Assembly: GCA_049999805.1 (NCBI GenBank)
Contig: JBNGIO010005980.1
Coordinates: 1-64,000, forward strand
DNA: 64,000 nucleotides
DNA from: Folioceros fuciformis
Lineage: Eukaryota
Reading direction: 5' to 3'
Shown here: piece by piece, positions 3,042 to 61,880 of the stretch
Position numbering within the stretch: the stretch's first letter is position 1
How the letters are laid out: each line of letters opens with the position of its first letter
Position numbers and translations under genes: made by a program
The notes under the pieces: generated by a model
Told to the model about the DNA's origin: nothing
Database searches by the model: none
What the model saw: the letters and a program-made list of their open reading frames with translations, nothing else

Positions 3042-3410
3042 AATTCTAGTTCCAAGGTTTTTACTGAAGAGGGGAGTGGAATGCCAACGAGGACTTCATC
3101 CCTCCGATTTCTTCTATCACACCGTCAGCCATCCTGGGAACAAGTTAAATTCCGAGCAATGGAGAGTCTTCGGTGCACAAGAGTAGATCGATGACAGATC
3201 ACAGTGAATATAAATATGCGTACGCACTAAATCCTGCGAACTTGTGTCAAGGACAGAAACACGCCTAGTAAACTCATGTCAAACCCAGGAGCTAAGGCAA
3301 ATTTAACCCCTCTACTTCATGGAAATACGCTAGTGGCAAGCAGGATGTAAATTATAAACCGGTGTGCAGGTTTTCCCCCTTGCAAAGCGGGTGCAGAGGT
3401 TTCGGAGGGC

Positions 3411-3510
3411 NNNNNNNNNNNNNNNNNNNNNNNNNNNNNNNNNNNNNNNNNNNNNNNNNNNNNNNNNNNNNNNNNNNNNNNNNNNNNNNNNNNNNNNNNN
3501 NNNNNNNNNN
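3411..3510. other. Assembly gap (100 N); further 10-N gaps at 26903-26912, 47014-47023 and 58725-58734
   Basis: Runs of N in the sequence. Confidence 1.
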
Positions 3511-3900
3511 CTGGATCATGAAGACCTGTTATTTTACCTATCAGATAATGGAATGTGCAGACGCTGTTCATTTTTAGTAATTTATGTTAATTGTGAAGTT
3601 ATCTTATTAGCTATAGCATGGTGGTAAGAGTTTCACGTAAAGGGGAAGGGTTGAAATCCTAATTATCATATTAAAATATGGTGATTGTTTTTTAATTATA
3701 TTTTTTGAACATTATTTTTTAATTATACTTTTTTAGTATTAAACTATAATTTTCACTCAAAAAGTAGTAAAATATGATATGGTGACAAATCCCCTCTAAA
3801 GTTCTTTGGCTCCAAAGGAAGGGGGATATGTGATTTGAATATAGAGATATCGAAGGGAAAATAAAGTATAAAAATAAGATTACATGGAATCTTCTCTCTA

Positions 3901-4504
3901 AGTAACACCCCCTTCAACGGGGTGGGGCAGAACCACGCAGTTAGAAGCCAAAGCAAAGGTCAGTTTTAAACTCCGGACACAGCACTAGGCCTCCAAGTAG
4001 CCCGCCCTCCTCTTCTAGGAGGACTCGCAACCAGCACCCTTGCTGCTGCTCTTTATTCAAATCACGAGTCAACAAGAACATACAGAGCTGGAGGGCTAGA
4101 GAGAACTCCCCATCTTTGCCTAAGCTAGGAGTTTAGCTCTCCCTTCTCTTCGCCTCCTCCCACAGCTCCTTCATAGCACCTTTCATGTGCTCTCACAGCC
4201 CAAGCAACACATGCTCTCAAGGCAAAGCCCAAGCACCCAGTGCTCTCAAGGCTTTGAGGAGATACTCATCTCAACTCCACTGAACTTCCCTTAACCCTTG
4301 GCTAGGTCCCCTTTTATACACAAGCTCAAGTCACTAACTTAGCAACTACTTACTTAAGCACTTACTTAAGCCTTAAGCTATTATTCACTACCACACACTT
4401 TTTCCTAGGGCTGCATGCTTCTCATGCTCTCTTAGTAACCTGCTCTGCTAAACATGCCTTTGCATGGAGCTTACTTGCTTAGCACTCAAACCAACGTTGT
4501 TACT
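3901..4504 (-). repeat. 3' LTR of the gypsy element (604 bp)
   Basis: On + it begins AGTAACACCCCCTTC and ends CAACGTTGTTACT. It matches 9174-9801 with roughly a dozen substitutions (mostly transitions, counted by eye) plus indels. Confidence 0.95.
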
Positions 4505-4514
4505 TCCTCCCCCA
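4505..4514 (-). other. Polypurine tract (PPT)
   Basis: The minus strand reads TGGGGGAGGA immediately before the 3' LTR start AGTAAC. Confidence 0.85.
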
Positions 4515-4534
4515 CTAGGAAAGAATCATTGTCC

Positions 4535-7500
4535 TCAGTGATAACCAGTGTAACGAGCAATCATCCAAGAGCCTCTCTGGATATCCTCTAATGTTACCCA
4601 AACTGGTGTTGAGATCCCACGCAACTTTACCATATATTGAGGTAGAGTTCCACGTCTCGTAGCCACGCTACCTTCTGCAAGGAATTCTTCAATCTCCCGC
4701 AATCCTTGATCATGCTGCACCAGGATACTGTACTTCTTCCTGTCCATGTCTTCTTTCTCTTTGCCTAGCACAAATGGTTTCAACATAGATACATGAAACA
4801 CATTGTGTGCAAAAATCCAATCAGGCAAATCTAACTTGTAAGCCACTTCGCCAATGCGCTTCAAGACAACATATGGACCTCCATACTTTGGTCTCAACTT
4901 TAAAGACAATCCTTGGGGTAGTGTGAAATGCTTCAGTTTCACCCAAACTTTATCCCCAACATTGAAGACAGTTTCTCTCCTGTGCTTATCAGCATATCTC
5001 TTTTGACGTGCTTGAGCCTTGGCTAATATCGTTTGGGCAACCTCATGCCTAGCCTTCAATTGCTCAACGAATTGGCGTGGATCTCCAGTGATAGTGTCGA
5101 AAACTTCAGCATTTAGCATGGATACCACATCCAAAGCTGAATTTCCACTCATCTCAAAGGGAATACATCCCAGGGAGCTATGTACTGAGTTATTGTAACA
5201 AAACTCCGCATCATCAAGATGATCAGCCCAATCTCTCTGATCAATCTGCACATAGTGCCTCAAATATTCTTCTTGGATTCGGTTGACTCGCTCAGTTAAT
5301 CCATCAGTATCTGGATGGTATGCAGTACTCATGCATAGCTGCACATTCAAGCTCTTCATCAAGTGCTGCCAGAACTCTCCTGTGAATCTTGGATCTCTAT
5401 CGCTCACAATCTGCACGAGCAAGCCATGATACTTGTACACATACTTTTTGAACAAGTTTGCTGCCTCAGAAGCGGTCACTCGCTTCTTGGTGGGGATGAA
5501 GTGTGCTTGTCTGGTGAATCTATCCACCACTGTCATGATAGCTGTAAATCCATTACTGGGAGGCAAGGGCATGATGAAGTCCATAAAAATACTTTTCCAT
5601 GGGCCTCTTGGGATAGGTAGGGGCTGTAAGAAACGTCTTGGCTTAGCCTGCTCAACCTTGTCCTGCTGACAAACAGCACATGCCTTGACAAAATCCAATG
5701 TATCTTGATACATTCCTTGCCAATAGAACAGTCTCCTCAACTTCTCATAAGTTGAATCACCTCCACGGTGACCAGCACTTGGCACATCATGGCACTCAGC
5801 AAGCAATTTCCTCTTCAAGCCTACAGAGTTAGGGATCACAACTCTCTTCTGTTTGTATATTAACAAACCATCCTTGAGGTTGAACTTGCTTCCTTTCTCT
5901 GCCACCCCATTCATCCAGTCCTGCACTTCTGGATCTTGCAGATAAGCTTCTTTTATCTCTTTGTGAGCATCCAAGGGTTCAATCACAGTTGCCATTGCTT
6001 TCACGTCTTGACTCTGCTTGCGGCTCAGCGCATCTACAACCTTATTCTCTTTTCCAGGTTTATATCTAAGAGTCACGTCATACATAGCTAGGAAATCTTG
6101 CCATCTAGCTTGCCTCGCATTCAACTTTAATTGGTTTGAGAAGTACGTCATGCTGATATTATCAGTATACAGCACAAAAGACCTACCCAAGAGATAGTGT
6201 CTCCAACCCTTCAGACAGTGGATGACAGCAGTCATCTCCTTCTCATAGGTGGGATACTTCCTCTCATAAGGATGCAACTTCCTTGACTCAAAAGCTAACG
6301 GCTTTTGGTCCTGCATCAAAACTCCACCTATAGCCACATCTGAGGCATCACAAAACACTTCCACATCTCTCTTGGGGTCATACATTCCCAACACTAGAGT
6401 CGTGCTCAACTTCTTCTTCAAGCATTCAAAGGCTGCTTGACACTCAGCATCCCATTTCCAAGCTTTTGCTATCTTCAAGAGGTCAGTTATGGGGGCTGCT
6501 ATCTTAGCAAACATATGTACAAACTTCCTGTACACAGAAGCCAAACCCATAAAACTTCGCACCTCATGAATATTTCGAGGGGGCTGCCAATCTTGAATGG
6601 CCTTAACTTTATCAGGATCCATCCTGATGCCCTCGGCAGAGATAATGAAACCTAAGAATGAAATTTCTGTCTTGACAAAGTCACACTTCTTGATTGCCAA
6701 GAACAAAGAATTCTCTCTTAGTCTCTGTAACACTTTCCTCAAGTGTTCAACATGTTCCTCCAAGGTATGGCTATAGATCAAAATGTCATCCAGATAGATT
6801 ACAACACACTTGTCCACCAGATCTATGAATATAGTATTCATAAGAGTCTGAAATGTAGCAGGTGCGTTAGTAAGTCCAAATGGCATGACAAGGAACTCAA
6901 AAGATCCATACCTTGTTCTGCATGCTGTTTTGTACTCATGCCCCTCTGCAATCCTGATCTGATAGTACCCTGCCATCAGGTCTAGGTTGGTGAAATACTT
7001 GGCACCCTTCAACCTGTCAAACATGTCGTCCATTCTCGGCAAAGGATATGCATTCTTGATTGTGATCTGGTTCAAAGCTCTGTAATCCAGACACAATCTA
7101 AGTCCTCCATTCTTTTTGCGCGTGAATAACATAGGCGCACCAAAGGGAGACTTAGAAACTCTGACATATCCCTTTGCCAACAGGTTGGATAGTTGTCACT
7201 TGAGTTCTTGCAACTCATCTTGTGACAATCTATATGGTGCTCTCGAAGAAGGTGTACTCCCTGGCCTCAACTCAATTTCATGATCCACAACTCTACGAGA
7301 CGGCAATGGTGGCAACTCATCTGGCATCAAGTCCTTGAACTCATCTAGTACAACTTGTACTTCTTTTGGGATGTCCTTCTCCTCTGTGGAATCTTCTTCC
7401 AGACCATCCTCTAGTCCTTGGAGTACAACCAAGTATAACTCCTTCTTTTTCCTGAGGTCTTTCTTGATCTCTCTTTTTGTAATCAGCTGTACTGATACGC

Positions 7501-7958
7501 TTTCAAGCCTCTGGCTATTGCTAGCACAACTCACTCTGTGCTTTCTGGATATCTCGATAGTGCGTGACTTAACATCCATTTGCACTTCATTAGATCTCAA
7601 CCACTCCAAACCTAGGATGATATCATGGTCATCCATCTCCACGACTGTAAAACTCACACTTCCTTGCCACGCATCAACTTGCAGCTTTACTCCATGCAAT
7701 TCATCCAGAAATTGCAGAGTTCCTTTAGCTTGCCTGATTCTATATGGCGTGGAAGTTTCAGTCCAATCAAGGCCAAGCTCTCTTGCCTTATGTGGAGTCA
7801 CAAAATTATGGGTGGGCTGCAGAATCTAACAATAGCTCACCATCCAAGCCATTGATCTTGCCACATATATACATCAAGTCTCCACCCTCCCTGGAAATAA
7901 TGTCATCCTTGACACTCGATGACTCACCACATGTCCTCACAACATGTGGCCCCTGGCA
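4535..7958 (-). pseudogene. pol: Gypsy pol (protease, RT, RNase H, integrase, degenerate chromodomain); open from 7180 to 4535, with a stop at 7196-7198 and a +1 frameshift in the protease
   Basis: RT motifs [20 protein letters not shown] and YLDDILIYS; RNase H FCDAS; integrase HHCC (ECHD..GH..CAVC) and D,D,E (MDFI, SDRD, TER); GPY motif; C-terminal [17 protein letters not shown] chromodomain-like segment. Protease LLDSAA/THNFVTP is broken by an extra C near 7815. Confidence 0.93.
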
Positions 7959-9120
7959 TTACCTAGACTCTTCAGGGAGCTCTTGGATCCTGGCTCTAGG
8001 AACAGGTGGATTTGCGGCCACTAGATTCAAGTTGGGAGCTCCTGCATGTGGACAGTTCCTAGCAAAATGTCCCTGCTCTCCACAACTATAACATACACCA
8101 GAGGTAGGCGCTACACGTCGTCTTCTACGACTCCTGTTATCACCTCTACCCCGACTTCTGGCAGAAGTCTCAGCAGTTGCACTGTTCCCAGTGGTGGTGG
8201 CTCGTCCTCTGCCTCTAGATTTACCCTGAGATCTAAGATATCTCCCCCTGGAGATTGGAGCCTCCTGGACAAACATGTCCGGTATGGCATCTGCTGCTGC
8301 CATAGCCTCTTGCAATGTTTGAGGATTAGTCAATGCAATCCTGTTTTGAGCCCATCTCTTAAGGCCAGTAGTAAACTTGTGGAGTTTGTCCTGCTCATGC
8401 ATCTCAGGACATTGCAAGACAATAGAGCTGAATTCACTCACATACTCCCGCAAAGTTCCAATATGCTTGACATTGTCGAGCATCCTTCGCGCCAAACTCG
8501 CAGCATTAGCTGGTTGGAAACGGAGTTGCAGCGCTTCCTTGAAGTCTGCCCATGTAAAGATTGTTGCTCTACGATTGCCTTGCCTTACGTTCTCTACGTA
8601 AGTCCTCCACCAAGAAAGAGCATACTCGTCCAAGAAGTTCGTGACGTGCTTCAAGTACTCGTCTTGGGGAACTCCGCATGATTCCAAGTACGCTTCCAAA
8701 GAGAAAAACCAAGAACTGATTTTCTCTACGTCACGCTCGCCCTTATAACTCTTAGGCGCAAGAACACTCAATCTCAACTTCTTTGCATTCTTAGGAGCAC
8801 AGATCTCAGGCTCCGGCTCCACTTCTTCTGGCTCTTCATCAACGAGCCTACGTTTGCCTTTGATCTCTTGATCTAGAGCATCAAGTCTCCTCATGATTTT
8901 TTTGGAGCTGGTCCTCTATGGTGGTACCGGTCCTTTGCTCCGAAGTTCCTTCCTCTGTCGTTCTCACGACTTGAGGATCCGCCTGTGGTTCTTCCACAAC
9001 GGCTTCGGTAAGTGGGGCCTTATCCTTCCTGCGACGCACCCTCTCGGCTTCGGTAAGCGGGGCCTTATCCTTCCTGCGACACACCCTCTCTGCTCTGCCT
9101 GGCTCAGCAGGATCTGCCAT
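7959..9120 (-). pseudogene. gag: Gypsy gag with CCHC zinc knuckle; frameshift near 8895-8902 (T7 run)
   Basis: ORFs 8881-9120 and 7959-8894 overlap out of frame. Retrotrans_gag-like motifs ALSWW, TWADFKEAL and CYSCGEQGHFARNC are present, as is a 45-bp tandem duplication (AERVxRRKDKAPLTE x2). Confidence 0.9.
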
Positions 9121-9151
9121 CGTTAACTAGCGTACTAGTCAAGGATGCTTT

Positions 9152-9170
9152 AACCTATGCTCTAATACCA
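9152..9170 (-). other. Primer-binding site complementary to initiator tRNA-Met
   Basis: The minus strand reads TGGTATTAGAGCATAGGTT, 3 nt downstream of the 5' LTR; the plant iMet PBS consensus is TGGTATCAGAGC. Confidence 0.88.
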
Positions 9171-9173
9171 ACA

Positions 9174-9801
9174 AGTAACACCCCCTTCAACGGGGTGGGG
9201 CAGAACCACGCAGTTAGAAGCCAAAGCAAGGGTAAGTTTTAAACTCCGGACACAACACTAGGCCTCCAAGTAGCCCGCCCTCCTCTTCTAGGAGGACTCG
9301 CAGCCAGCACCCTTGCTGCTGCTCTTTATTCAAATCACGAGTCAACAAGAACATATAGAGCTGGAGGGCTAGAGAGAACTCCCCATCTTTGCCTAAGCTA
9401 GGAGTTTAGCTCTTCCTTCTTTTCGCCTCCTCCCACAGCTCCTTCACAGCACCTTTCATGTGCTCTCACAACCCAAGCAACACATGCTCTCAAGGCATAG
9501 CCCAAGCACCCAGTGCTCTCAAGGCTTGAACTTCCCTTAACCCTTGGCTAGGTCCCCTTTTATACACAAGCTCAAGTCACTAACTTAGCAACTACTTACT
9601 TAAGCACTTACTTAAACCTTAAGCTATTATTCACTACCACACACTTTTTCCTAGGGTGCATGCTTCTCTTGCTCTCTTCTCTTGCTCTCTTAGTAACCTG
9701 CTCCCTGCTAATCTTCTCTTGCTCTCTTAGTAACCTGCTCCCTGCTAAACATGCCTTTGCATGGAGCTTACTTGCTTGGCACTCAAACCAACGTTGTTAC
9801 T
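9174..9801 (-). repeat. 5' LTR of the gypsy element (628 bp)
   Basis: Same AGTAAC...GTTACT ends as the 3' LTR. It lacks a ~27-bp block present in the 3' LTR and carries an internal duplication of CTCTTGCTCTCTTAGTAACCTGCTCCCTGCTAA. Confidence 0.95.
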
Positions 9802-10369
9802 CTCTATGGTAATTGGAACCTTTCTAACATAAATATTATGCCAATTTATCTCTTTAAATAAGTTTTAAATCATATATATTTTAAAAACAAGAATCGAATA
9901 AATATGAAATAGACTTTGCATTCTATCATTATAAATGTATTGATTTCTATCAAGCAATTGTTATGCTAGTAAAAGAGTATAAGTATTATGTTAGTCCATG
10001 CACGATCTGGAACTCCTTCAAGGCAAAGTACTCTAGGTGCACCATGGCATTCAAAAGATGCACAATACTCTCAAATGTAGCCATGTTAGCAAAGGATGCT
10101 TAATGCCATCAACAATAATGCCAAGTCGGAAGGAAGACGACGGGCACGAACGCAAGCTAAGGCATCATAACCTACTTTGGGCTTCCAACATGATGAAACA
10201 GAAGAAAGGAAGCTCACTGCAGCGCTAAGCGCACGGCACAATTCGCCCTCTGAAGATAGTGCTTGAACCTTTTCAGCATCCATCGTTTTGTTGGAACTCG
10301 CCGACGCAGTCTCCGCCACCCAATCATCACTTATTACCGTGATTGCTAACGCTAAGACAAGCCCAATCA

Positions 10370-11211
10370 CCAGACCTGACTGTTCCTTGCATCGTCTGCG
10401 CAAGCCAGACCCCAAGGACACAGCATAGAAAGTCGGACGCCGTTGAAGACACGCGGGACCAGAGCAAACAAACCTAGGAACAGGAGCGCCAACACGCGAG
10501 TTGGAGATGAGCATGCCGATTGCGACCTTCCCTCCAAATCCTCACCACAACCAAACGTGAGGACCGGAAAACACAACACAACCAAGAAACGCACCACATC
10601 GTAACAGTCCAATATGAAAACCTAACTCAAACCTCCGAGCTAAGCGAGAAAGGGGTAACGTGGTCGGTTGCAGAGCCGGCCATGGCGTTCGCCGGACAAT
10701 GCATACCTGTACTCCTGTACTGTGGCCTTCACAACTCAAGAAAAGGATTGGACTCCGCGTCCAACACGAGCGAGACGCCTCACCTTCCCCTCTCCAGCTG
10801 TCCTCCGACAACGAATCAAACATAATGATATACGCATATATGTATCCAGTCGATCTCCCTCTCCACAGGCCTGAATCCTGCGCACCGTTTTCATGCCTGT
10901 CTGCCGATCCGCGTCTCTTTCCTGGTTCCGTAGCGCGGGATCCCGATCTCCCTTCACCGCTTGAGCTACTGTCCCTCCTCGCAATGAGAACAGGATCATC
11001 GTTGCCAGCAACAGCTACGCAAAAAGCGTTCTTGACCCTCAGAGCCGGCCATCTGTCCGTGGGATCCCGCGAAACACGGACTTCCGTGTCAGCCACCGCA
11101 TCAGCTGCGTTCTCCGGAGTGGTCTTCCACAGATAAAGTCTGCGCTCTCCTTCTCATCCATTCCAGAACATTCTACGCTCTCCTTCTCATCCATTCCAGA
11201 ACATTCTCCAT
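10370..11211 (-). pseudogene. Decayed ORF of unrecognised family, paralogous to 12815-13648
   Basis: Reads MENVLEWMRRRA...LWKTTPENAADAVADTEVRVSRDPTDRWPALRVKNAFCVAVAGNDDP, which aligns with the second copy. A 33-bp tandem duplication (~11143-11208) introduces a stop, and frameshifts follow. Confidence 0.5.
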
Positions 11212-15747: not shown

Positions 15748-18012
15748 TCAACATAAACACTAAGTATCACAAACTCAACACCATTCCACAAGACATATAC
15801 GCTGGTGTCCGCATCAAGACAAAGAAAGCCAACTTCTATGAGCTTGTGAAACACCTCATACTAGGCCCTGGGAGCCTGTTTAAGCCTATACAAGGTCTTA
15901 AGGAGTTTACACACCTTGTCCTCATCAATGATAAAACCTTCTGGTTGACACATGTATATATCTTCTTCAAGCAAGCCATTCAGAAATGTTGTTTTTACAT
16001 CCAATTGATGCACAAGGAGATTGTAATGGGAAGCTATAGCTAGGAGGATTCTTACAAATGTAGACTTGACAACGGGTGCAAAAGTCTCATTGTAATCGAG
16101 TCCTGGAATATGGCTATAGCCCTTAGCAACAAGAAGCACTTTATACCTTCCTACAATGCCATCGGTGTTGAGTTTTTTCTTAAAGACCCATTTGCATTCT
16201 ACAAGCTTTCTACCTTTAGGAAGGTCAACTAGTTTCCCAGTTTGATTTTTAAGGAGTGACTGATATTCAAATTCTATGGCAGCTTTCCAAAAAACAGACT
16301 CTAGACCTTCAATGGCTTCTTTATATGTGGCTAGCTCGCCTAATGAAACTGAAACACTTAGAACTGTGGCTTGGCTAGTATCTGAAGTGACAAGGCCAAC
16401 TTGAAAAGGTGGTTTTGTCCACTCGTGCATAGGTCTCCTAAGGTGAGTAGAACGTCTAAGGGGAGCCACTGCTTCAGGATTAGGGGTGGCATCTACAATA
16501 GCTTCCGGTTCGGGTTGGATTGAGACAACTGGCTCGACAAGTGTATCAGCAGCTTGATTAGATTCAACCTCGTCTGGTGTACCTGAACTATCAGCAAAAT
16601 CGTCATTATTGTTGCTAGAAGTTGGAGGAGGCTGTATGATGTTGTTGTTGTCCCCCTTGTAATCCGAAGAAGAAGACTCCTCATCATCATAAAAACTGAC
16701 TTCATCTAGTAGAATTGAATCAGAATGTGCAACACCTTGTATGGTAGTTGGTTGTGGATCAGCTTGAAGCTGGAGTTTAGGGTTGCTGATAGAAAAACAC
16801 TCGGTAGTTGTGGTCTTGTGCAAGCTTCATGACGGACATTAAGTTCTTAGTCATTGAAGGCACATAAAGAACATCAGTAAGAATGAGGTGAGCAGAGTTT
16901 GGCAGGAGCATTGTTACAGAACCAGTTCCCTTGATGGAAGGCACACTATCATCACCTAGAAGCACAAACTATTTAGAATCGCCAGCTGCAGTGAAACTGG
17001 AAAAAGCAATCTTGTCAAAACAAATATGACTAGTGGCACAAGAATCTAAGTACCAAGAACTAGGCTGGGTTTTAATGGTGGATAAATAGACTGCCAAAAT
17101 GGTTGGCTGCTTAGCCTTGCTCACTGTAAGATTGCTTTCTGTTGGAGGACTATCACGTTGAGGCTCTCCGTTCTTCTTCTTACAGTAATCCCGTTCATAA
17201 TGGCCGGGAATTTTACACCAGTTGCACACAAAAGTCTTCTTGGTGTTGTTGGTGTTCAATCGTTGGGTTGAGTGGGAAAGCCACGTCCTCGTCCACAGCC
17301 TCGTCCTTTGGAAGAATAGAGCACTCTCGCACCACTGTTTGAACTTGAGGCACGAGGCTTGTGAAAAGTGTGTGCTCGTTCCTCAGCAAGAAGTGCTCCT
17401 ATTACTTCTTCAAGAGTGACAGTAGGAACCTAGCCTGTTGCAGCTGCCTTAATTGCAGCATGTATTGTGGCATTCTGGCTACCAACAAACCTGTTGTAGC
17501 TCTCTGGCAAGGAGGCTCACTGCTGCCTGTACCTCTATAAGCACTGTTCCACAATGCAAGGTTCGCCCTATGTGTCTTGTACTTGTTGATGTAGGCCTCC
17601 ACTAGCTCATTTTCTTTCGTCCTCAAATTGAAAAAAATCCCTGTACGCATGAACAAGGGATGCAATGCTCTTGTCTTGATAAATGGACTCAAACACCTTC
17701 CACACGTCATTAGCAGTCTTGGCTCCAATGGTGTGGGGCATCATGGTTCGATCTAAGGCAGCAATGAGTATAGAATGGGCACGCCTATCCTTTCGCTCCC
17801 AAGTTAGGATTTCGTCTGCGGATCTAGCAGGTACAGTGACTTTGGGTTTTGTTCCATCTACTATGGAAAACAGCTCATTCTCCTCAAAGATCTGAGTGAG
17901 TCTCATGGCCCAGATTTGATAGTCTGTCCCATTGAATCTATTGTTGTCACGAAAGTCTATTTTCAAAGGAACGAGGGTAGTTGCAAGTGCAGCAGGCAGT
18001 TATGCTGCCATA
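15748..18012 (-). mobile_element. Internally deleted, truncated Ty1/copia retrotransposon (gag, zinc knuckle, protease, partial RT; integrase missing)
   Basis: Gag FNGTDYQIW..AKTANDVW; CNWCKIPGHYERDY knuckle; protease WYLDSCATSH; LTDVLYVPSMTKNLMSV; RT CKWVFKKK..RYKVLLVAKGY..QLDVKTTFLNG..LYRLKQAPRA..ILSVYVD, after which similarity stops. There are frameshifts and stops. Confidence 0.9.
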
Positions 18013-26577: not shown

Positions 26578-28779
26578 CACGTGCACGTGGATTTGCAAGG
26601 GATAATAGGCAAACATAGCTCCAAAGACTAAGAAGATAGGGATAGGAAAATGATGAGACACTCTTTGTCCACTTGAGCATGCCATAGCCATGCTTGTAGG
26701 ATTCCTTGCTCAAACACCAACATGTACAAGATTTATGTTTTTCTCTCTTATTGCGAGAACACATAGACATGTTGCTAAAACCTACAAGAGTTCGCCTTCA
26801 CTTTGTGTTTTGGAAATGGCGTGAGAACATAGCCTCCACATCCCTTCTCATATACAAATGTCACTTATGAAGAAATTACTCTATATCTACTTGTATGATG
26901 ATNNNNNNNNNNAAATGTCACTTATGAAGAAATTACTCTATATCTACTTGTATGATGATCTCAAACTGAGGAACCTTCCATTTCTTATTTTTGAAATTGT
27001 TGCTTTTGTTGGCTATCGTGAGAGAGTTCCATCCCTAAGATATGAAGCATTGGTTTTTCATTGTGAATCATGTTTCTAGTCCACAATGTGAGAAATGGCA
27101 CATACTTCTTGTGGAGCGATTCTTTCAACCCAAGAATCACCAAAAGGTCCACATTAGCCCTTATTGTCGTTGCAGTCTTGAGATCCGTTCCCAAGGGAAT
27201 GATCTTGTGTCAAGGCAGTGTACTATTCTCCCCTAACGTACTAGCCTAATCCTACCTATCAGCACCTACCTAACCCTAATAGTGGCTAAAGTAGTTAGGT
27301 TAGACTCCATAGCTTTATTTCTAGCACAAACTACCTCAACAGCTGAAAGGGAACATCAACATCAACTCCACCCTCCAACCTCATCTCTTATCTCCGCTTT
27401 AGCACCAATCTTTAGTCTCAACTCCACTCCCTAGCCTCAACTCTAGCTCCAACACTTAGCTCCAACTCCCCACTTCAGCACCCTGAAATGTGCACACAAC
27501 TCTTCAACCCTGGAATTTGCAACATAGCAACCTTCTCTACTTGCAGCCTTTAAGGCAGAGATGTGAAGTCTTGGGTTGGATAGCCTCCTTGGCTCATGGC
27601 CCTGCAACTCTTACCTTGGAAACCCACTTAGGGACGTCAAGGCACCTCAGCTAGCATGCAAAAAAGATCAGCCACTGCGGATCTAGCCACACAAATCTCG
27701 GTAGCCTAGGGATCCACCACATCCCCCTAGTGACAAGGGGATTAAGCCCAAAGTGCACTCTCACACCATATCAGCATCCTAATCTGGCAGCCTGCACACA
27801 AGGGACAAGGGGAATCACACCAAAAGACTACCCTCTCCTCAATGACAGGCCTAGCCTCTTATACTATCTTGGACAAGAACCTCAATCATTATCTAACAGA
27901 GTTAGCATCAGTCACACACCCGGCAATCCTTCTCCCCGACCTAAACCTAACCCTAACTCCAACCTATGAGGGGTTACCAGCTGCCCTTTGACACTCATTA
28001 CTCGTTACCCCCTACCAAAACCATCAGTGCATCTCCACAACTTCCCACACCTCCCTCAAATCATCCTGTACCTTCCTCAAGGCCTCCACCTTCTTCAAGT
28101 ACTCCCACCTCCATCTTGCTGGCCAGCCAGGGAGAACCTCATCCTACTGGTTATGGAGCTCCTTTGGTCCTCTAGAGTTGTCCCGCCCTGGTTGGGGTAG
28201 CTGGTTCATGGCAGTAGAACCACCCTACCACATCTTTAGCAATCCCCACGCCACGTTCACCAAAGTAATGCTCATGTTGTTGCGAATCACATGCAACTTC
28301 TCCCAAAGCGGCGTCAATGCAGCAACCTCCAAAGGGCTAGAATTCCCCAGATGGACCTTATTGTCCACCGACTTACTCCGCGAGTTCCTCTGCCTATCGT
28401 AATGCTAAGCTGCACCCGTCCTGGCAGTCCAGCGCATACAGCTATTCGCTGAGCGCCATGCTCGGATTCCTCCACCCCGACATCATCCCATCAATAAAAG
28501 ACGACTCATGGTTAGTGGCCAGCACACATTTAGTTGTAGGGGTAGCAATGTATGGCTCATGAATGCATTCGGAGCTACGAAGGTTGACTGTTTCAAGCCC
28601 CATAGAAGCATTGTTCCTTCGCATGAATCTTCCCCCAACTGCCTCCTACATTAGGTCCCTAAGCTCCAAAATTGCCAGCCTCCTTCAAGGCTGCCCTTGT
28701 GCTCAGTTTCAAAAGCTTTGCGCCGACAGAGGATAGCCCCCTGCTTCGCTCAGACCCATTGAGAAACAACCGCCTACTA

Positions 28780-35500: not shown

Positions 35501-38500
35501 TTAAAATAGGCCTGGAGCTGAGCTGCTTCGAGGCCTGTCCAAGTCCACTTCGTAACGATGCACGCATATGGTGCGCATCCCACGGAAAGTAGCGAGCTGC
35601 GTCAACTGTCCTCGAGGGATTTCATCAAATTTGCTGAAGACCACACTCATGAAAGGAGGCCTGGCATCACCTGCCCTCACTGCACATAACTAAGCTTCCC
35701 CGCAACCGCAACCGCAACAGCCACAGTCAACAAATTGTCTTAGTCGGTTACTGCTGCAGCCCATAACAAAATCGCACCAACTTAGGTAGGGGGGTGGCCA
35801 CAAAACCAATTCTCACCCCCTTGGGCAGGAGTAGCCAAAAGAAACTTCTCCCTACCAAAGGTTCTTCAAGACTACAAAAGAGGTTAGAGACGACTCCCCA
35901 TCTTAGCTTGAGCTATTAGCTTAGCTCTTTCAAATTCAGCCATCTTGAAAGCTCTGCCACCCACACATTTCATCCTTCCACAACCTTTAGGCACCCCATC
36001 CCTATCCTCAAGTGCTTGCCTGAAATCCCACAAGCGAGGATCACAAATTCCCAAGAATCCCGAGAGAGCCTTAAAGGAGGAGGTCAAGTGGAGAGAGCTC
36101 AGCTTTTGGCTCATGTAAAGATGGAGAGTTCTCTCTGCCCTCCATGTATTCTTGTTGACTCAAATTGTCCTCTAGGCAGATACAGAACTGCAAAGAGGCC
36201 TAATGCTAGTATTTCCCATCTTTGCCTAAACACCTAACATAGCTCTTTTCTATCAATTTCCTCCTCCACATCAAGACCTACCATTTAAGAGTGTGGCCTT
36301 TGTGCTCCTCTAGGACCCAAGTGCCTTGAAGAGTGTGGCCCTGGTGCTATCTTCTACAAAGGAAGCTCGCCCTATAGACTTCCAAAGCTTATAAGCACTT
36401 ACTCCTACTTCCACACAAGTGTGACCTACATAGTCTTCACCATGCTTACGTTTTCTCTAACACACTCACACTCTAGACTCACAAAGCAACGAGGCACCCA
36501 AATCTATCCTTAAGAGGCACATGTGCTCTCCTCTAGGGACCTCGAACTTTAGACTACCAAACTCCCAAACCTAGCATATAGTTCCCCCTAATCTAGGAAT
36601 ACTATGGCCTTGCTTCAAATCCTAAATTCCGATTAGATTATAGATATGAAGGAATGAATGAGGCCTAGTCTAAGACTACTCTCATCCGCTTGAACATGAG
36701 GCTTATACCATTCTGAATACAATTTCCTTGAGCAAATTGTTGAGCCCTAAGCAAAATCCTACCGCCACTAACGCGGAACTTCTAAATTAGATTCAAGAAT
36801 GCATGCCTCTCATGCATAGAGACTCATTGTACTTTGTGGCAGTCCACATAGCACGCGAGCATCCAGATCCTCCTTATATATTCCTCTAATATCATCTAAA
36901 TTAGATGTGAGATTCATGAAATCTTATTGTATGCTTTGATATGATTCTATGTTTTGTAGCTACACTTCTCTTTGCAACAAAATCTTTAATCTCCCACAAA
37001 CTTTATTATGTTGCATTGTAAGCAAGCCATTATCGTCCACAAATACAAAAGAAACATACTCATTTTCATATCATATGACTCAGGCTCTTTGCTCTAGGTT
37101 TCTTGTTTTGCAATTGTAACAAATGGTTCCTTCCATTGTAATGAAGTTTGCATTTTATGCATGCTTTACTTAGTGGTAAATAATTTTATCTTTTTTTTTC
37201 ATTCAGTGAGCAAAAGGGTTGTTGTTGTGGTAGTACTTCGTGCTATGCTTCTTCTTTGTGGGGGAGGTGCCGTGCTTCAATCTTCCAGGTGGGCATAATT
37301 GAAATTGTTCTCGGTGTGGTGCTTGACGGCATAGGGGCAGCAAGAAAAAGCTCTCTACCCCTGGAAGAAGGTAGGATGGGAGAGACAGAAACGTGTGAGA
37401 CGATGTATCTATGGGAGCCAAGAGACAATCCGCACTCCCATTCACGTTGGGCTTACGAAAGGGCAAAAGCCAAAGTGTCGTAACAGTTGCTCAAGAAGAA
37501 ATTAGACGCCGTACTCCTGCAGAACGAGAAAAGAGTTCACTACAGACGAAACGACCTGACCGACACCTCTGCAACCATGGTTGCTGGCAGCTCGCAAATG
37601 ATGATGCGATGGTAGCATGTGCAGAGACTGTACACGCGCGAGGCCGGCAGGACGGAAGGTCTTGCGGCATCGACATCAGCGATCTGACACAGGTAGCAGG
37701 AATCCACCTGAAATTCTAGTCAGGAAGATGCCACAATTCAACGGTTTGGTGGCAACATCAAGTCCGCCGCAAGTGAACAATTTAAACAAAGTTTAAGCTA
37801 CAAACAGCTAAAGGCAATGTTCCAGAAAAATGCACACCTCCAGCAGCAAGGTCTAGAGCCCATTCACCAAGCCCATGGGGGACATTAGGGTTTGGATACA
37901 GAGCTGCTGCAGTGTCCGTAAGTACCCTGCACGGAGACAAAATTGGCAGGGCAATCGTGGATCAGGACGCAGCAGCAGCTCAGTGGGCTCGCGAAGGGCT
38001 TGCGGGCTTCGCTCCATCCTTGACTCTGCACGGACCATTGCACCACCGACCAGCAACGTGAGGTGACTACTTTATTAGGCACAGGCATGGAAGGCATTCA
38101 CCACGGTTCCGCATTCAGCTTGCTTGCGTCACAGGACACAAGCTCCTGTCCTTTCAAGCTCACCTTCTTCAGCAGAAGTCATGGGTCTCGATGCCCTGCA
38201 AAGCAGTCTCCTAAGTAACCTCCGTTTCTTCAAGCCGGTGCATGCGTAGGTTTCTTCCCCCTAAATTTCTACACCTCACTTCTCTCGTTCACCAGCGTCC
38301 CTTCCCCATGCCATTTTCAACACTTTCTCGAGGAAGGGCTCTTCTCTCCCTTTCACCAGCTTCTAAACCTCTAACTACGAGATGCCAAAAACCCCCTTTT
38401 CCTCTGGCACAGTCTCTTTTTCCACGACATAATCCTAACTTAAAAAACAGGATGATGATATGTCTCGTCAAAGTTCGGTGTACTTGCCAAGCTCCACCAG

Positions 38501-38515
38501 CTTTACAACACAAGC

Positions 38516-41470
38516 TCAAGGGGTAGCATTCAAGGTGCTGTGTCCAGGTTCCAGCGGTGCATTCATGGTGCTGTCTCCAGGTCCCTGCGATGCGTTCATG
38601 GTACTGTCTCCAGGTTCCGGTGATGCGTTCATAAGGTCATTGGGCATGGACGCTGTGTCCAGGCTCCAACAGTCCCTGGATAATCCTTCTGCCTCGGTGC
38701 CAGCCAATCTATAAGCAGGAACTCTATGGGAAAATCTAAGCAGTTGCTTCGCAGGATAGAAGTCCACAACACCCGGCTTTCGTCTAAAAACAGATTTGTA
38801 CTCGGAGAGTTTGGTCAGAGGCGCCACATTCACACCCTCTGCTTCGCTGAAGTCGCTGATCACCTCCACCATGTCGTACTTCCTCCCTCGGTTTGCAGTC
38901 GGCCATCCTTCCTCCCAATTCTGGTACATGGCCCATACCTCCTGCTTCCTGGGATATATCTTCAGCACGTTTTTCAAACCCTTACCCACCGTGGCCAAAT
39001 GAGAGAAAATGTTAACGGCCTTTACATCAGTAGATTTGCCCAACTTGAAATCCCCACATGGTATCGCCAGTTTAGTTTGATTTACCCACTTGGCACTCTG
39101 ATTATAATTATATGTCTCCAGCCAATGCATCCGAACTTTGAAAGGAGACACCACAACTTTGTCAATCTTCCCATAGAACCTGGGCATCCCGTCGTCATCA
39201 TCATAAATCGCCCACACTTGCCCTTCAGCAAACTCTGTCTCTGACCTTTCATTGTCAAATACGTGAAAATCAGGGTCAGGGACCTCAATATCGGCCTCGC
39301 TCAACGGAGGAGGGCACGAGGAAGGGGTCGTGGGCAGAGCACTGGAAGGCTGCCTTCCTGCAGAAATCACACATGTTGTCCTCGGAGCTGGTGCAGATAA
39401 AGGACTTGATTTCTCGGACACCTGCCGTCCATTCGCTGCTGAGCTCCTATTCACTGTCCCATTGCCATCTGCATTCTTCCTCTGCCGAAGCTGTCGGGAC
39501 TTGCCCCCTCCTTCCTCTTTGGCATCCTCAACCATATTCCTGATATTGAAGCCAAATCTTTCTCCTTCAGCGGAAACGGAGCAATTGGCATGCATGTTGC
39601 CTGTCACATCCTTCCTCCTGGAGCTCTCCAAAGCGGCAGCTGACACATTTTCCGTCACAACCTGCTTACCCTTAACCCCTGATTTTGAAGTATCAGGCTT
39701 TGTCTGAGAGTATCGCATGCTTTCCTTGACCTCTTTACTATGAATCAGGTTAACAGGGCATCGTTCTTTCTTGTCACCCTTGGAAAGATACTCCTGCCAC
39801 TCGGATTCACTGTTCTCCCCCCCCACTGCCTCATCTGCCATTTCGTCAGCTACTGGCGCTCCAACTGACTTGTAGTCAACATAGCTCCGCTTACGAGTCG
39901 TCATACCATCAACTGCACGAACCTTTTCTGATTGTTTGGACTGCCCATCCACCTTCGTAGATGTGTTCTGCCGCGCCTCATCGTGCATGAAAGAATTCCC
40001 ATTTTCAGCAACTGTGAAGCTACTAACGGTAGGTGCCCCTCCCCTGCTAGCGGATGCCACGTTCATTTTGTCTGCCAATCGAGAACCCTTGCCAACCAGG
40101 AAGTTAATAAGCTCATCTTCCTCCTTCTCATCATCAGTATCACCAAAAGTGTAAGCAACCTTATTGTTTCTCTTTCGAAGTGACCTACGCAGCTTGGTGG
40201 GAGGTTCTTCTCCTTCCTCCCTACCAGTCGACACATCGACCTTGTAATCTTCGTCCCCATCTTCCGCCATAGCATCCTTTTTCTCCTCTTCTACTTCCTT
40301 CACATCTTCCTCGTCCTCGTCCTCGTCCTCCGCCTCTTCCTCCTCCTCCTCCTCTTCATCCTCCTCTTCACCATCCACCTCCATCCGTAGACTGCTGTCA
40401 CATGCCTTCTTTGACCTCGTCTTTGACTTTTTAGGCTTTCCCTCAGGCCTCCTCCGTAACTTGCTAGCCTTCTTCTCAGGTTCTGCCTCCATCGACGCCT
40501 GCCTCACTTCCCGCACCAACTTCTCCTGGAGGCTATCGTCTTTCTTCCTCTGACTAGACTCCGGGTGATCTTCTACTGGCATTCTATCCTTGGAAGCCAC
40601 CACCTCCTCTCGATTCTTTCCCTTCCTTCCCCTCTGTAAGACCTTCTTTGCTTCCCTCTCAGCCTCAACCCTCTCCCTCCTGACCTTTGCAAATGTCTGC
40701 TGCACAACATCCTCGGATTTCTGGCCAGTTCCTGTTTCCTTCGCTGCAGTTGCGGCTGCTGGATGAACAGATGTTGAATTTGCTGACCCCGTACCAAGAC
40801 GGGTCTTCTCAGCTGCTGTGCCGTTGGAAACTCCTCCCACTTTGTCATCTGCTTGCTGATTCCACCGAAATTGGTCGCTCGGCCATTCGGTGGCTACGAA
40901 AGAAGCCTTACAATGTACACAGTCAACACGGTGGTTGATATACTTTCGCAAGTACTTGAACTCAGTCTTGCACATTCGGCACATCGTCCAAAAGGTTTCC
41001 AGGACATCTGTTCCAGGTGGTGCGTGCCCATTAGAAGGTGCAGGTTGCCGCGCAGCCGCCACCTTCAGCGACATAACTCTCTTCATATCAAACAGGTGCC
41101 TCTTCTCTTTGTTGGTAAGAACAGCATTGGCTTCTCCAATGAGCTTGAAAGCCGCTTCTGCACCGGCAAATTTGTTCTTGTCTGGATGCAGCGCCAGAGC
41201 CAATTTTCGATATTGCTTCTTGATAGTTGCCTCGTCGGCAACAGGATCGGTCTGGAGAATGCTGTACCAGTCCGAGTCGGTCCCGGTAATCTTTTGCTCG
41301 GCCGCAAGCTCCACATCAACCACAGCATGGAGTTGTGCCAGCCCCTCCAAGCCTTGATGGAGACTCATTGCCTTGTTCAGAAATTTCTTCGCACCTGCAA
41401 GGTCCCTCTGAGCATACTTACTCTCAGCAATGCCCTTTGCTCGAAGTGCCTCGTCCCTGTTACACTCCAT
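38516..41470 (-). CDS. DnaJ (J-domain) protein with zinc-ribbon and C-terminal DUF3444 domain, 984 aa, single coding exon
   Basis: N-terminus MECNRDEALRAKGIAE is typical of this plant family. J-domain DWYSILQ..IKKQYRKLALALHPDKNKFAGAEAAFKLI; TFWTMCRMC..CVHC; DUF3444 VPDPDFHVFD..GQVWAIYDDDDGMPRFY..FSH..IYPRKQEVWA..FSHRVP..WSLDTAS. The ORF is uninterrupted. Confidence 0.95.
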   Translation of the reverse strand: MECNRDEALRAKGIAESKYAQRDLAGAKKFLNKAMSLHQGLEGLAQLHAVVDVELAAEQKITGTDSDWYSILQTDPVADEATIKKQYRKLALALHPDKNKFAGAEAAFKLIGEANAVLTNKEKRHLFDMKRVMSLKVAAARQPAPSNGHAPPGTDVLETFWTMCRMCKTEFKYLRKYINHRVDCVHCKASFVATEWPSDQFRWNQQADDKVGGVSNGTAAEKTRLGTGSANSTSVHPAAATAAKETGTGQKSEDVVQQTFAKVRRERVEAEREAKKVLQRGRKGKNREEVVASKDRMPVEDHPESSQRKKDDSLQEKLVREVRQASMEAEPEKKASKLRRRPEGKPKKSKTRSKKACDSSLRMEVDGEEEDEEEEEEEEAEDEDEDEEDVKEVEEEKKDAMAEDGDEDYKVDVSTGREEGEEPPTKLRRSLRKRNNKVAYTFGDTDDEKEEDELINFLVGKGSRLADKMNVASASRGGAPTVSSFTVAENGNSFMHDEARQNTSTKVDGQSKQSEKVRAVDGMTTRKRSYVDYKSVGAPVADEMADEAVGGENSESEWQEYLSKGDKKERCPVNLIHSKEVKESMRYSQTKPDTSKSGVKGKQVVTENVSAAALESSRRKDVTGNMHANCSVSAEGERFGFNIRNMVEDAKEEGGGKSRQLRQRKNADGNGTVNRSSAANGRQVSEKSSPLSAPAPRTTCVISAGRQPSSALPTTPSSCPPPLSEADIEVPDPDFHVFDNERSETEFAEGQVWAIYDDDDGMPRFYGKIDKVVVSPFKVRMHWLETYNYNQSAKWVNQTKLAIPCGDFKLGKSTDVKAVNIFSHLATVGKGLKNVLKIYPRKQEVWAMYQNWEEGWPTANRGRKYDMVEVISDFSEAEGVNVAPLTKLSEYKSVFRRKPGVVDFYPAKQLLRFSHRVPAYRLAGTEAEGLSRDCWSLDTASMPNDLMNASPEPGDSTMNASQGPGDSTMNAPLEPGHSTLNATP

Positions 41471-43797
41471 TGCTGGACTACTCGTTCAGTGTCCGCCCAA
41501 CCGATACCGTGGACACCGAATCCCCCCAGTGCGACTTGACTAGATCTACCCCACACCTAAAACCTCATAACATTCTTGCAAATTCGATGTCAACTACTTC
41601 CTACTCATGAAGTGCCTCATCCCTGCTACCCTCCATTCCTGGACGACGTGTACAGCCTCCTCCCAATTGAGCTTGCGTGTGTCCAACTGAACTTGCGGAA
41701 GGAACCTGAGGAAGCCGAAGCCGAAGCCGAACTCAGCTCGACAGTAACTGTTGCATACCTCAAGCCTCACACAACTGGCCCAGAGTAGTTCCCTACAACG
41801 AGATATTTCAGTCCGCCTGAGCCCCCAGGACTTGTCCAGAATCAAACTAGAGCGTCCTTTCCCTCACTGCCTCGCAGTATCAATCGGCAAAGTGGCACTA
41901 AGATGGCGAGATTGTGCTTAGCTGCTTCTCAATGCCCACTACCCCTGTCCTCTCCTCCCTCCCAACACTCAGGGACCCTTACCACTACCGCCGACACCCC
42001 TAGAGCCGCTTCTTAACTCCCAAAATGCCTCTCAACCTTTTTCAATTGCTTGCCAACACCTTCCAAAGCCGACCTATAGCTTCCAGTACCTCCCAATAAT
42101 GAGTTGCGATGCGCCTGACCACACGCAAAATCTGATGGAAACTGCGGCAAAACCCACAGAAAAGAGATCAACCACAAGGTCAAAGCGGTCAAACCAAGCT
42201 CTATCAGAGAGGCAAGAAGAGGATTAAAACGCCGCAATTGATGATGAGACATCCCAAACAGGCAAAACGGATACACATATCAAAGAACATGGGTTATGGA
42301 AGGACGCCCAAGGCCAAAAGCCTTGAGCGTGATCCGTGTCCTCCACGAGTCATGAGTCGCCGCAAAAACACGCGTGCCTGCAGGCCGCAACAAACACAAA
42401 ACTACCAATGCAGATTTCTTTCAAACATCGCCTGCCTACAATGAATCAAAAAGGCCTGAAAAAGGACGATGCGGAGGACTGAGAGTGCGCTAATCTCTTG
42501 CGGTAAGTGGTTAGCGGGAAAGACCAACAACAAATACAGCACAGCAGAAGCAACACCCACACACCCATAACAAAATTCCTCACCACTCCACTCCCCTTCC
42601 CCCTTCGCTGGGCTGTTCCCCAACGTCCAAGACCGACCCATCGTCCCCAAGACGCGATTGACGGAACCAAAGAGAAGCAGCACATGGGGGCTGTAACCAT
42701 ACCTTCCCTCCTTCCTCCTTCCTCCTTCCTTCCTCAGGAGGTCGCATTCGGAGAAGCAGCCCTTCCAATCAGAGGTAGTATCGCAGGAACCTCACTTCTT
42801 GCGTCCGTCCCAACAAGCCGGCGCGAGCGCAATACGGCGAGCCCCCCCTGCTCAACGAAAATCGCAAAGGCCTGCCTGATCCCCACCGGCGTTGTCCTTC
42901 ACGCACCCGCAGAGAAGCAAAGGAACGGCTAGTCAATCGTCTTTCCTCTTCCCTCCTCCTCTACAGGCCCGCCCTTCCTCATCGCCCAGTGCCGCTCTTA
43001 GCTCACCCCGCTTGCCATACAGGAGGGAGGGTGGGCTGGCTCCAGAGTTGAATTGGGGTGAGCTGCGGGGCGGCACCTCCTCACACGCCTAGCATTCCGA
43101 GGGAAGCCCAATTCAGGGAAGCACAATCGGGAAGGAAAACACCAGACGCACCAGGCCACAATCAGGTCATGGCTCGCGCTCATCAACCTTTCTCTCTTGT
43201 TCCTGGTAGTAGCAGAAATGTGCGCAATTTGATCGTCCTTTCCCTCCAGGTCCAGGTGTGAACGCGTAAGGCGCCCGCCTTACCACACTGGCACCCGTAA
43301 TTTGAACCCTCGCGTGGGCGCCCTAATGAATGTGTCCTTCTTGCCTTGGGATCACGCTCGCCAAATACGCCTCAGACCCGGCCGGAAGAAGAAAGAAACA
43401 AATCTTGCATTGTATTTCTGCTCCTCTTCTTCCACTTCCAAAGATCTCTAAACAATTCTGGTATGCACTCTTGGTCAAGGAGCTCTCCCTAGGAAACAGC
43501 CTCTTATGATGTCGTTCTCAACACAAAATACAAAGCATGTAAGGAGATTGAATGACTTCATCTAATCCATGTGGCACATATCCGTATGTTGGTGCCACTA
43601 ATGTCAATAGATTGCGGCTCAAAAGTACTCGAAGATACCTTGCAGCAAACATACATGCCTCGTAGTCCTAAAACAAAATTTTGCACCAATGGTTGTACTG
43701 GAACATCCGTCTTTATGGTAGTACAACCCTAAACCATCGCATCCACAACCTTGGTATGTCCAATGAATGACAAAAGACCATAGCTCAGAAGACCAAA

Positions 43798-60862: not shown

Positions 60863-61880
60863 TCACAGTTTATCACTAAGCTTGAGAAGGCCGTCTCCAA
60901 TTTTCCCTAGAGCTGCAACGAAACCAAGCCCTATTTCTTTATTAACTTCTACCATATTGTTCAGCATGTGAACCATGTCCTTGTTGCACTGCAACAACTC
61001 TTCATGCTTCCTTGTATCCAGTTGCATACTCTCAATATGATGTATACCTCTCTTTTCTTCAATAGCACGGAGAGCTTGGACAAATGATTCAGTCATTGTA
61101 GACAATCTGGTATCAACGGCCTTCTCCTTTAATTTTCTGCGCTTAATCCTCTCTATTGTCCATTGTTGGGGATCTATTGGAGCTTTTGATGCCTCCTCTA
61201 TGGGCTCACTTGAAACATCTGGTTGAGAACCGGAGCCTGACTCAGTAGGCATCATTGAGCAACTTGAAGTATCTGGAGTCTGCAAAAAATTGGAGTCCAC
61301 AGGCAATTTTTTTTCTTTCTTATCGAATGAAGGTATTTTCCAATAGTCTAAGTGACCACTTCGCATTTCATGCCAATTATAGTTAGAAATCTTCTTCCAT
61401 TGTTGCTGTAACTGTTTCCACTTGGATCTGCACATGTCAAGGGAAACATTGGTGCCATGCTTCACACAATAAGCGGCTACAGCATCCCACCTCACCATTG
61501 TGGACTTCATCTTCTCCTTTACACCACCAAATGCCCGTTTCTCTTCTTTAATTCTCACAGCTGCTTGAAGCATGAGGCAATCATTGTTTTTCCAAGACAT
61601 TCGTGTTGGTGGAGGTAGAGGCAATGGAGCAAAGGGAGGAGGAGGTCTATGTGGAACTACAGAAAGCAATGGAGACCCTCAACAAGATGCTGCTGAGAGG
61701 AAGGCAAAAAAAATTGCTGTGATTGAAGACGACGTTGCTAGGAATCAAGAACCAAGGGTTGATTAAATGCCATTGGAGACCTCTTAACGTGATGCTGCTG
61801 AGAGAGGAAGGCACAAAAAATTGTTGTGATTGAAGAGGAGGTTGCTGGGAATCAAGAACCAGGGGCTGATTGAATGCCAT
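60863..61880 (-). mobile_element. PIF/Harbinger accessory ORF (Myb/SANT-like, trihelix-type DNA-binding protein); 5' end disrupted by a ~110-bp duplication
   Basis: SWKNNDCLML..RWDAVAAYC..CRSKWKQLQQQWKKI..YW is a Myb_DNA-bind_4-like pattern with a coiled C-terminus. It lies next to a Harbinger transposase in the same orientation. Confidence 0.8.

Follow-up and report, generated by a model that had tools for sequence, protein, structure and literature searches.

A full-length Ty3/gypsy-type retrotransposon of Folioceros fuciformis whose long terminal repeats begin with AG and end with CT

With few exceptions, long terminal repeat (LTR) retroelements and retroviruses terminate in CA-3′, and it is this base pair that integrase processes and joins. 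Insect elements of the gypsy group (gypsy, 17.6, 297 and their relatives) have AGT...ACT ends and a 4-bp target site duplication (TSD), and many of them carry an env gene. Here we describe an LTR retrotransposon of the Ty3/gypsy type found in a stretch of 64,000 nucleotides from Folioceros fuciformis (contig JBNGIO010005980.1, positions 1 to 64,000 of the forward strand; hereafter the window). The canonical TG..CA termini are absent from this element, which has AG and CT at all four of its LTR ends.

In plants, the LTR_retriever preprint described seven types of non-TGCA motifs in 42 of 50 genomes, mostly in Copia elements, and only the first base, T, was invariable; TACT, TGTA and TCCA were new in that study, while TG..GA, TA..TA, TA..CA and TG..CT came from earlier work (10.1101/137141). 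Nine non-canonical ends, including TGGT and TGTT, have been listed for lotus, where all Copia types start with T and the ninth type occurs in Gypsy elements (PMC9804982). In Rosaceae, Copia and terminal-repeat retrotransposon in miniature (TRIM) families with AA..CA and TG..TT ends have been described (PMC5659011), so a plant LTR with A as its first base is already known. AG..CT is absent from the motif lists in the available text of these three sources, whose supplementary tables may list more. Our literature searches for LTRs with AG..CT or AGT..ACT ends returned no relevant paper, nor did they yield documentation of the insect ends mentioned above. AG..CT is a new type within the known category of non-TGCA plant LTRs, in an element that is otherwise an ordinary Ty3/gypsy; the notable points are the palindromic ends, the change of a supposedly invariable first base and the occurrence of both in a gypsy-type element. 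As far as the available text of the same sources goes, the published plant non-TGCA elements share non-canonical termini that are inherited and transposition-competent, with normal TSDs. Their classes are mostly Copia or TRIM and most are non-palindromic, whereas the element in the window is a Ty3/gypsy in which both outermost bases are symmetrically changed (10.1101/137141, PMC9804982, PMC5659011).

The element is full-length, lies on the minus strand at 3901-9801 (5,901 bp) and is present in one copy at the locus; no second copy was found within the 64-kb window. Its non-coding features, read from the sequence and, for the LTRs, also from an alignment of the pair, are as follows.

3896-3900, unstranded: left copy of the TSD, CTCTA, identical to 9802-9806
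3901-4504, minus strand: 3′ LTR (on the left in the window), 604 bp, starting AGTAACA and ending TGTTACT on either strand
4505-4515, minus strand: polypurine tract (PPT) GTGGGGGAGGA, directly adjoining the 3′ LTR, in a context (CTAGTGGGGGAG) common with L017, one of the relatives described below
9159-9170, minus strand: primer binding site (PBS) TGGTATTAGAGC, an 11/12 match to an iMet-type motif
9171-9173, minus strand: spacer of 3 nt (minus-strand TGT) separating the PBS from the 5′ LTR
9174-9801, minus strand: 5′ LTR (on the right in the window), 628 bp, with the same termini and a 37-bp tandem duplication at 9675-9748
9802-9806, unstranded: right copy of the TSD, CTCTA

The LTR boundaries are sound, since three independent landmarks (TSD, PPT and PBS) agree on them. 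The original prediction, made from the sequence alone, had placed a CTCTA duplication next to the LTRs, a PPT abutting one of them and a PBS 3 nt from the other, and all three were found where it had put them. The termini that it had given are likewise seen in the sequence and in the LTR alignment: AGTAACA...TGTTACT forms a perfect 7-bp terminal inverted repeat in both LTRs, so that AG...CT is read from either strand. Its description of a full-length Ty3/gypsy element also stands, given the two LTRs, the TSD, the PBS, the PPT and the order of the Pfam domains. The PBS, TGGTATTAGAGC, is one mismatch away from the iMet-type motif TGGTATCAGAGC, which is exact in five of the relatives that we fetched; no tRNA gene was found in the window.

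Reverse transcription of the retroviral kind makes the two LTRs of each new copy from one U3-R-U5 template. The four ends of the element thus represent two sites, which were identical at insertion and already changed at integration, and since the 5-bp TSD marks an integrase-mediated insertion, the ends that integrase joined were ...TTACT-3′. Judged from its sequence, the element must have integrated with the AG..CT ends already present. Compared with TG..CA, the first base is A in place of T and the last is T in place of A, a complementary pair of changes with which the perfect 7-bp inverted repeat is retained; this symmetry fits symmetric recognition by integrase rather than random decay, and it is what would be expected if such recognition by an integrase multimer had been under selection. 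In the scenario that we propose, minus-strand DNA would have been primed by tRNA-iMet at the PBS and plus-strand DNA at the polypurine tract, after which integrase would have cut the target at CTCTA with a 5-bp stagger. On both strands the element would have been joined to the host through ...TTACT-3′, resulting in AG...CT LTRs, and an integrase that accepts or prefers CT-3′ ends would have maintained them over repeated cycles of retrotransposition.

A scan of metagenomes gave 77 loci encoding relatives of the element, which are 31-53% identical to it and were used as distant comparators; a protein-guided search for loci of relatives found none in viral contigs and none in genome contigs. The exact pattern of LTR end plus PBS had no match in the metagenome contigs and none in the genome contigs. 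Nine metagenome loci with an LTR pair were inspected. TG..CA ends are clear in five of them (L017, L035, L059, L076 and L077), three of which also have a matching 5-bp TSD. In L005 the LTR start is lost at the contig end and the LTR ends in CA, L029 has a TG start and an ambiguous end, and the boundary is ambiguous in L062 and L067. AG..CT ends were found in none of the nine. At the loci with an exact iMet PBS, CA was found 2-4 nt upstream in all five cases, and the LTR of L053 ends in GTTACA. The closest comparison is with L017, which has the highest identity (49%) among the relatives with readable ends: there CTAGTGGGGGAG is followed by 2 nt and then TGT, and in the window CTAGTGGGGGAG is followed by 2 nt and then AGT. 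Because the relatives are canonical at the same landmarks, the element in the window resembles a canonical relative whose outermost base has been swapped at each end.

Elsewhere in the window, at 35882-36229, three stretches of about 50-95 bp, in both orientations and 74-81% identical, resemble LTR positions 166-260. These could be what is left of a related LTR family, or they could share an LTR motif with the element.

We consider that the AG..CT ends are probably a heritable trait of the family to which the element belongs, and on the strength of the sequence data we would put the probability of this reading at about 0.75. Reads from four runs of the same organism were mapped to positions 3300-10400 of the window; X1 and X2 are the main runs, X4 covers little, and X3, in which most differences are C>T and G>A, was left out of the comparison of letters. 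The family is multi-copy: about 900 and 750 contigs match the element in the two main runs, and the word depth, which is about 7 in the unique flank to the right (9936-10400), rises to hundreds within the element. The terminal positions are absent from the 40 best-supported letter differences listed, which is a weak hint, and 15 of the differences listed are shown by all X1 and X2 contigs (by nearly all in three cases). A further weak hint comes from one contig that matches the final 28 bases of the LTR at 24 positions, by eye; this diverged copy also ends in GTTACT.

Several points weigh against this reading. The AG..CT ends are read directly in one copy only, the single element in the window, and a defective copy cannot itself demonstrate that an integrase works on such ends. 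Beyond those listed, the read comparison comprises a further 1,520 differences in letters, together with 508 loose ends. The motif DGLTE, which the integrase of the element carries in its active-site loop, is not specific to it: a search biased to the window's own words found this motif in at least 25 further Ty3/gypsy integrases without a known end type. Finally, the LTRs could be read as starting with AAGT and flanked by a 4-bp TSD, a reading that is likewise without a TG start and is taken up below.

The alternative that survives best, although we regard it as unlikely, is a single event: the family would normally have TG..CA ends, and a parent carrying both terminal mutations would have had its copy inserted once by a tolerant integrase acting in trans. 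The AG..CT ends were indeed read in no further copy, broken frames make the present copy a dead end, and every relative with readable ends has either TG..CA (five of the nine LTR-pair loci) or CA just upstream of the PBS (five of five). However, such an event requires two specific mutations in the parent, at the base that opens its 3′ LTR and at the base that closes its 5′ LTR, a pair whose chance we estimate at about 1 in 100,000 at a few percent divergence. The two mutations must also be complementary, the parent needing A at the one site and T at the other, which makes an accidental pair in one generation very unlikely, and the doubly mutant ends must have been accepted by the integrase. 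It also counts against a single event, if weakly, that no alternative terminal letter is among the best-supported differences listed.

We think it distinctly unlikely that the boundary is offset by one base, such that the LTRs would start with AAGTAACA at 3900 and 9173 and the element would have a 4-bp TSD, CTCT, and non-palindromic AA..CT ends. The base preceding each LTR start is A in both cases, so the repeat does reach 3900 and 9173, CTCT at 3896-3899 is matched at 9802-9805, and 4-bp TSDs occur in 6.2% of plant elements according to the available text of the REXdb survey. The same survey gives 5 bp as the majority length (93.4%; PMC6317226), and the 5-bp model offers both a longer TSD and a perfect 7-bp inverted repeat. 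Moreover, the chance of a shared A is 1 in 4, and short matches are cheap in flanks that are CT-rich.

That decay after insertion, gene conversion or an assembly error turned a TG..CA copy into one with AG..CT at all four ends is hardly credible. The copy does show its age, with an LTR divergence of 2.9%, three indels between the LTRs and frames that are broken, and N gaps lie close by in the scaffold (3411-3510). Even so, four changes of the same type would have had to hit precisely the terminal bases, or two such changes would have had to be joined by two conversions, in LTRs with only 17 substitutions over 577 aligned columns and in a region covered by both runs that contain the element. 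The original prediction had dismissed post-insertion decay and proposed CT-3′ ends at integration, and this is upheld by the single-template logic and by the small number of substitutions.

Some features of the assembly and of the reads are worth recording in their own right. The scaffold has a 100-N gap at 3411-3510 and three 10-N gaps at 26903, 47014 and 58725. The left flank (3300-3900) is itself repetitive in the runs, with a word depth of 165-689 compared with about 7 to the right of 9936. On positions 3300-10400, run X3 shows C>T at 255 places and G>A at 354 places, a pattern expected of DNA converted by bisulfite; should it be such DNA, the methylation of the element would be readable from it.

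The coding content of the element, derived from its open frames and from Pfam matches (open frames only for the N-terminal gag piece and the stop codon), is as follows.

4535-7195, minus strand: open frame of 886 amino acids with reverse transcriptase (RT), RNase H, integrase (zinc-binding, core and SH3-like parts) and a weak chromodomain-like tail
7196-7198, minus strand: in-frame stop codon separating the protease and RT frames (the open frames 7196-7825 and 4535-7195 are adjacent and in the same frame)
7199-7825, minus strand: protease frame (RVP_2 match), its start lost to a frame change
7959-8915, minus strand: main gag frame with Retrotrans_gag, Ty3 capsid and a CCHC zinc knuckle, in a frame that differs from that of the protease
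8881-9126, minus strand: N-terminal gag piece in a third frame, containing a 45-bp tandem duplication at 9000-9094

Pfam matches to gag, CCHC, protease, RVT_1, RT_RNaseH, Integrase_H2C2, rve and SH3_Tf2-1 were found in Ty3/gypsy order, and the arrangement of protease, RT, RNase H and then integrase, following gag, is the pol order of Ty3/gypsy elements (Metaviridae). The YLDD box and the HHCC, D, D and E residues are all present in an alignment with 11 relatives. Among solved structures, the intasome of Ty3 (7q5b) gives the best match, through its Gag-Pol chain (E 2e-55), and the integrase of prototype foamy virus (PFV) comes next. While relatives of about 1,500 amino acids encode gag and pol in a single frame, the N-terminal gag piece, the main gag and the protease are here in three different frames, so that this copy has two frame changes in addition to one in-frame stop. 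The copy is defective though its integrase frame is open: the open integrase frame with HHCC and DDE residues, as first predicted, is confirmed, and the element as a whole is nonetheless broken. A 45-bp sequence occurs in two copies in the gag leader (9000-9094), resulting in a repeated RRKDKAPLTEA peptide.

The substitutions between the two LTRs (12 transitions and 5 transversions) amount to 2.9%, or a Kimura two-parameter distance of 0.030, to which indels of 27, 12 and 39 bp are added; the divergence of about 2% estimated earlier by eye was therefore too low. The 39-bp indel corresponds to the 37-bp tandem duplication, whose two copies (9675-9748) are present in the right LTR only. At an assumed rate of 1.3e-8 substitutions per site per year, the insertion would be about 1.2 million years old.

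The best protein matches of the element are chromodomain-bearing plant Ty3/gypsy polyproteins. Identity is at most about 50% over near-full length for every protein match listed, and one match that is only partial, P0115, has 60% identity across 38% of the query. When 124 rows were placed in an unlabelled FastTree, the window protein fell among the chromodomain-bearing matches with an end branch of 1.06 (median 0.24), a length that makes its exact placement unsure. The Pfam Chromo domain was not found in the last 101 residues, even at E values up to 10, but when the tails of 88 relatives were made into a profile, the tail of the window protein gave a weak match of 14.5 bits, compared with 5.1 for the best of 200 shuffles. 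The element thus appears to be chromovirus-like with a degenerate chromodomain, to judge from its chromodomain-bearing relatives and from the weak match of its tail. The earlier assignment to a chromovirus-type lineage agrees with this in its relatives and in the tail profile, and disagrees in that Pfam finds no Chromo domain. With the plant chromoviruses (REXdb Tekay/Del, Reina, Galadriel and CRM) the element has in common the domain order, the 5-bp TSD, the iMet-type PBS and the PPT. It differs from them in having AG..CT instead of TG..CA ends, a protein identity of at most about 50%, a long branch and a Chromo domain that Pfam does not recognize. From the insect gypsy/errantivirus group, it differs in its 5-bp TSD, in having no room for env in 5.9 kb and in that its nearest proteins are from plants; the likeness of its ends to those of the insect group would be convergent.

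The integrase active-site loop of the window protein differs from the HPQTDGQTER of its close relatives. The motif is present in 114 of 120 close matches, and the residue two positions before the catalytic E is Q in all 114, while it is L in the window; in the same 114, HP is followed by Q in 109, by E in four and by P in one. These counts were made on the close matches and not on the 77 metagenome loci, which are unusable for counting Q there because one of the two scan patterns demanded Q in the loop. The codon for L is TTA; two steps would be needed to reach it from one for Q, and this speaks against decay of very recent date. HPDTD was found in none of the Ty3/gypsy integrases retrieved by the search biased to the window's own words, and in an alignment of 12 sequences the window protein is the sole deviant at 19 otherwise conserved columns. 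The two loop positions align with Q215 and K219 of PFV, whose loop around residues 212-215 presumably packs against the terminal CA. Given that DGLTE is found in so many other integrases, we rejected the loop substitutions as strong evidence for a changed end specificity. The comparison of integrase residues with relatives, proposed together with the original prediction, does show unusual residues in the loop, yet DGLTE is not specific and they are a lead only. The available text of the paper on the Ty3 intasome gives no detail on the recognition of terminal bases (PMC8632968).

An altered end specificity of the integrase is nonetheless what we infer from the ends themselves. It is conceivable, though we hold this wider proposal only tentatively and below even odds, that a plant chromovirus lineage, possibly from a little-sampled plant group, switched its joined end from CA-3′ to CT-3′ with a matching change of the other end, convergently with the insect gypsy group, and that the integrase loop co-evolved with it.

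The window has other coding features, all on the minus strand. An open frame of 989 amino acids (38516-41485) has DnaJ, zinc-ribbon and DUF3444 matches, and its best matches, from many angiosperm families, are only about 40% identical, so that the plant from which the window comes may not be an angiosperm. At 15861-16826, an open frame of 321 amino acids matches an RT of the Ty1/copia type (RVT_2), with no LTRs detectable nearby. The third, of 271 amino acids (60863-61678), has a weak match to a Myb/SANT-like DNA-binding domain, below the Pfam cut-off.

The ends of the element also bear on how such elements are found. The original prediction held that finders bound to TG..CA would miss it, and this is true in part: in the available text of the sources, the REXdb survey scored only elements ended by TG/CA (PMC6317226), and AG..CT is outside the seven types of LTR_retriever (10.1101/137141), but DANTE_LTR, which starts from protein domains, reports TG/CA boundaries if present and does not require them (PMC11358816). 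If the AG..CT trait is real, pipelines that require TG..CA or a fixed list of exceptions would under-count such families. The general picture of how LTR elements work is unchanged. A family that propagates with AG..CT ends would, however, be a palindromic exception to the rule that the first base is T, and it would offer a natural pairing of integrase and DNA ends in which end recognition could be studied.

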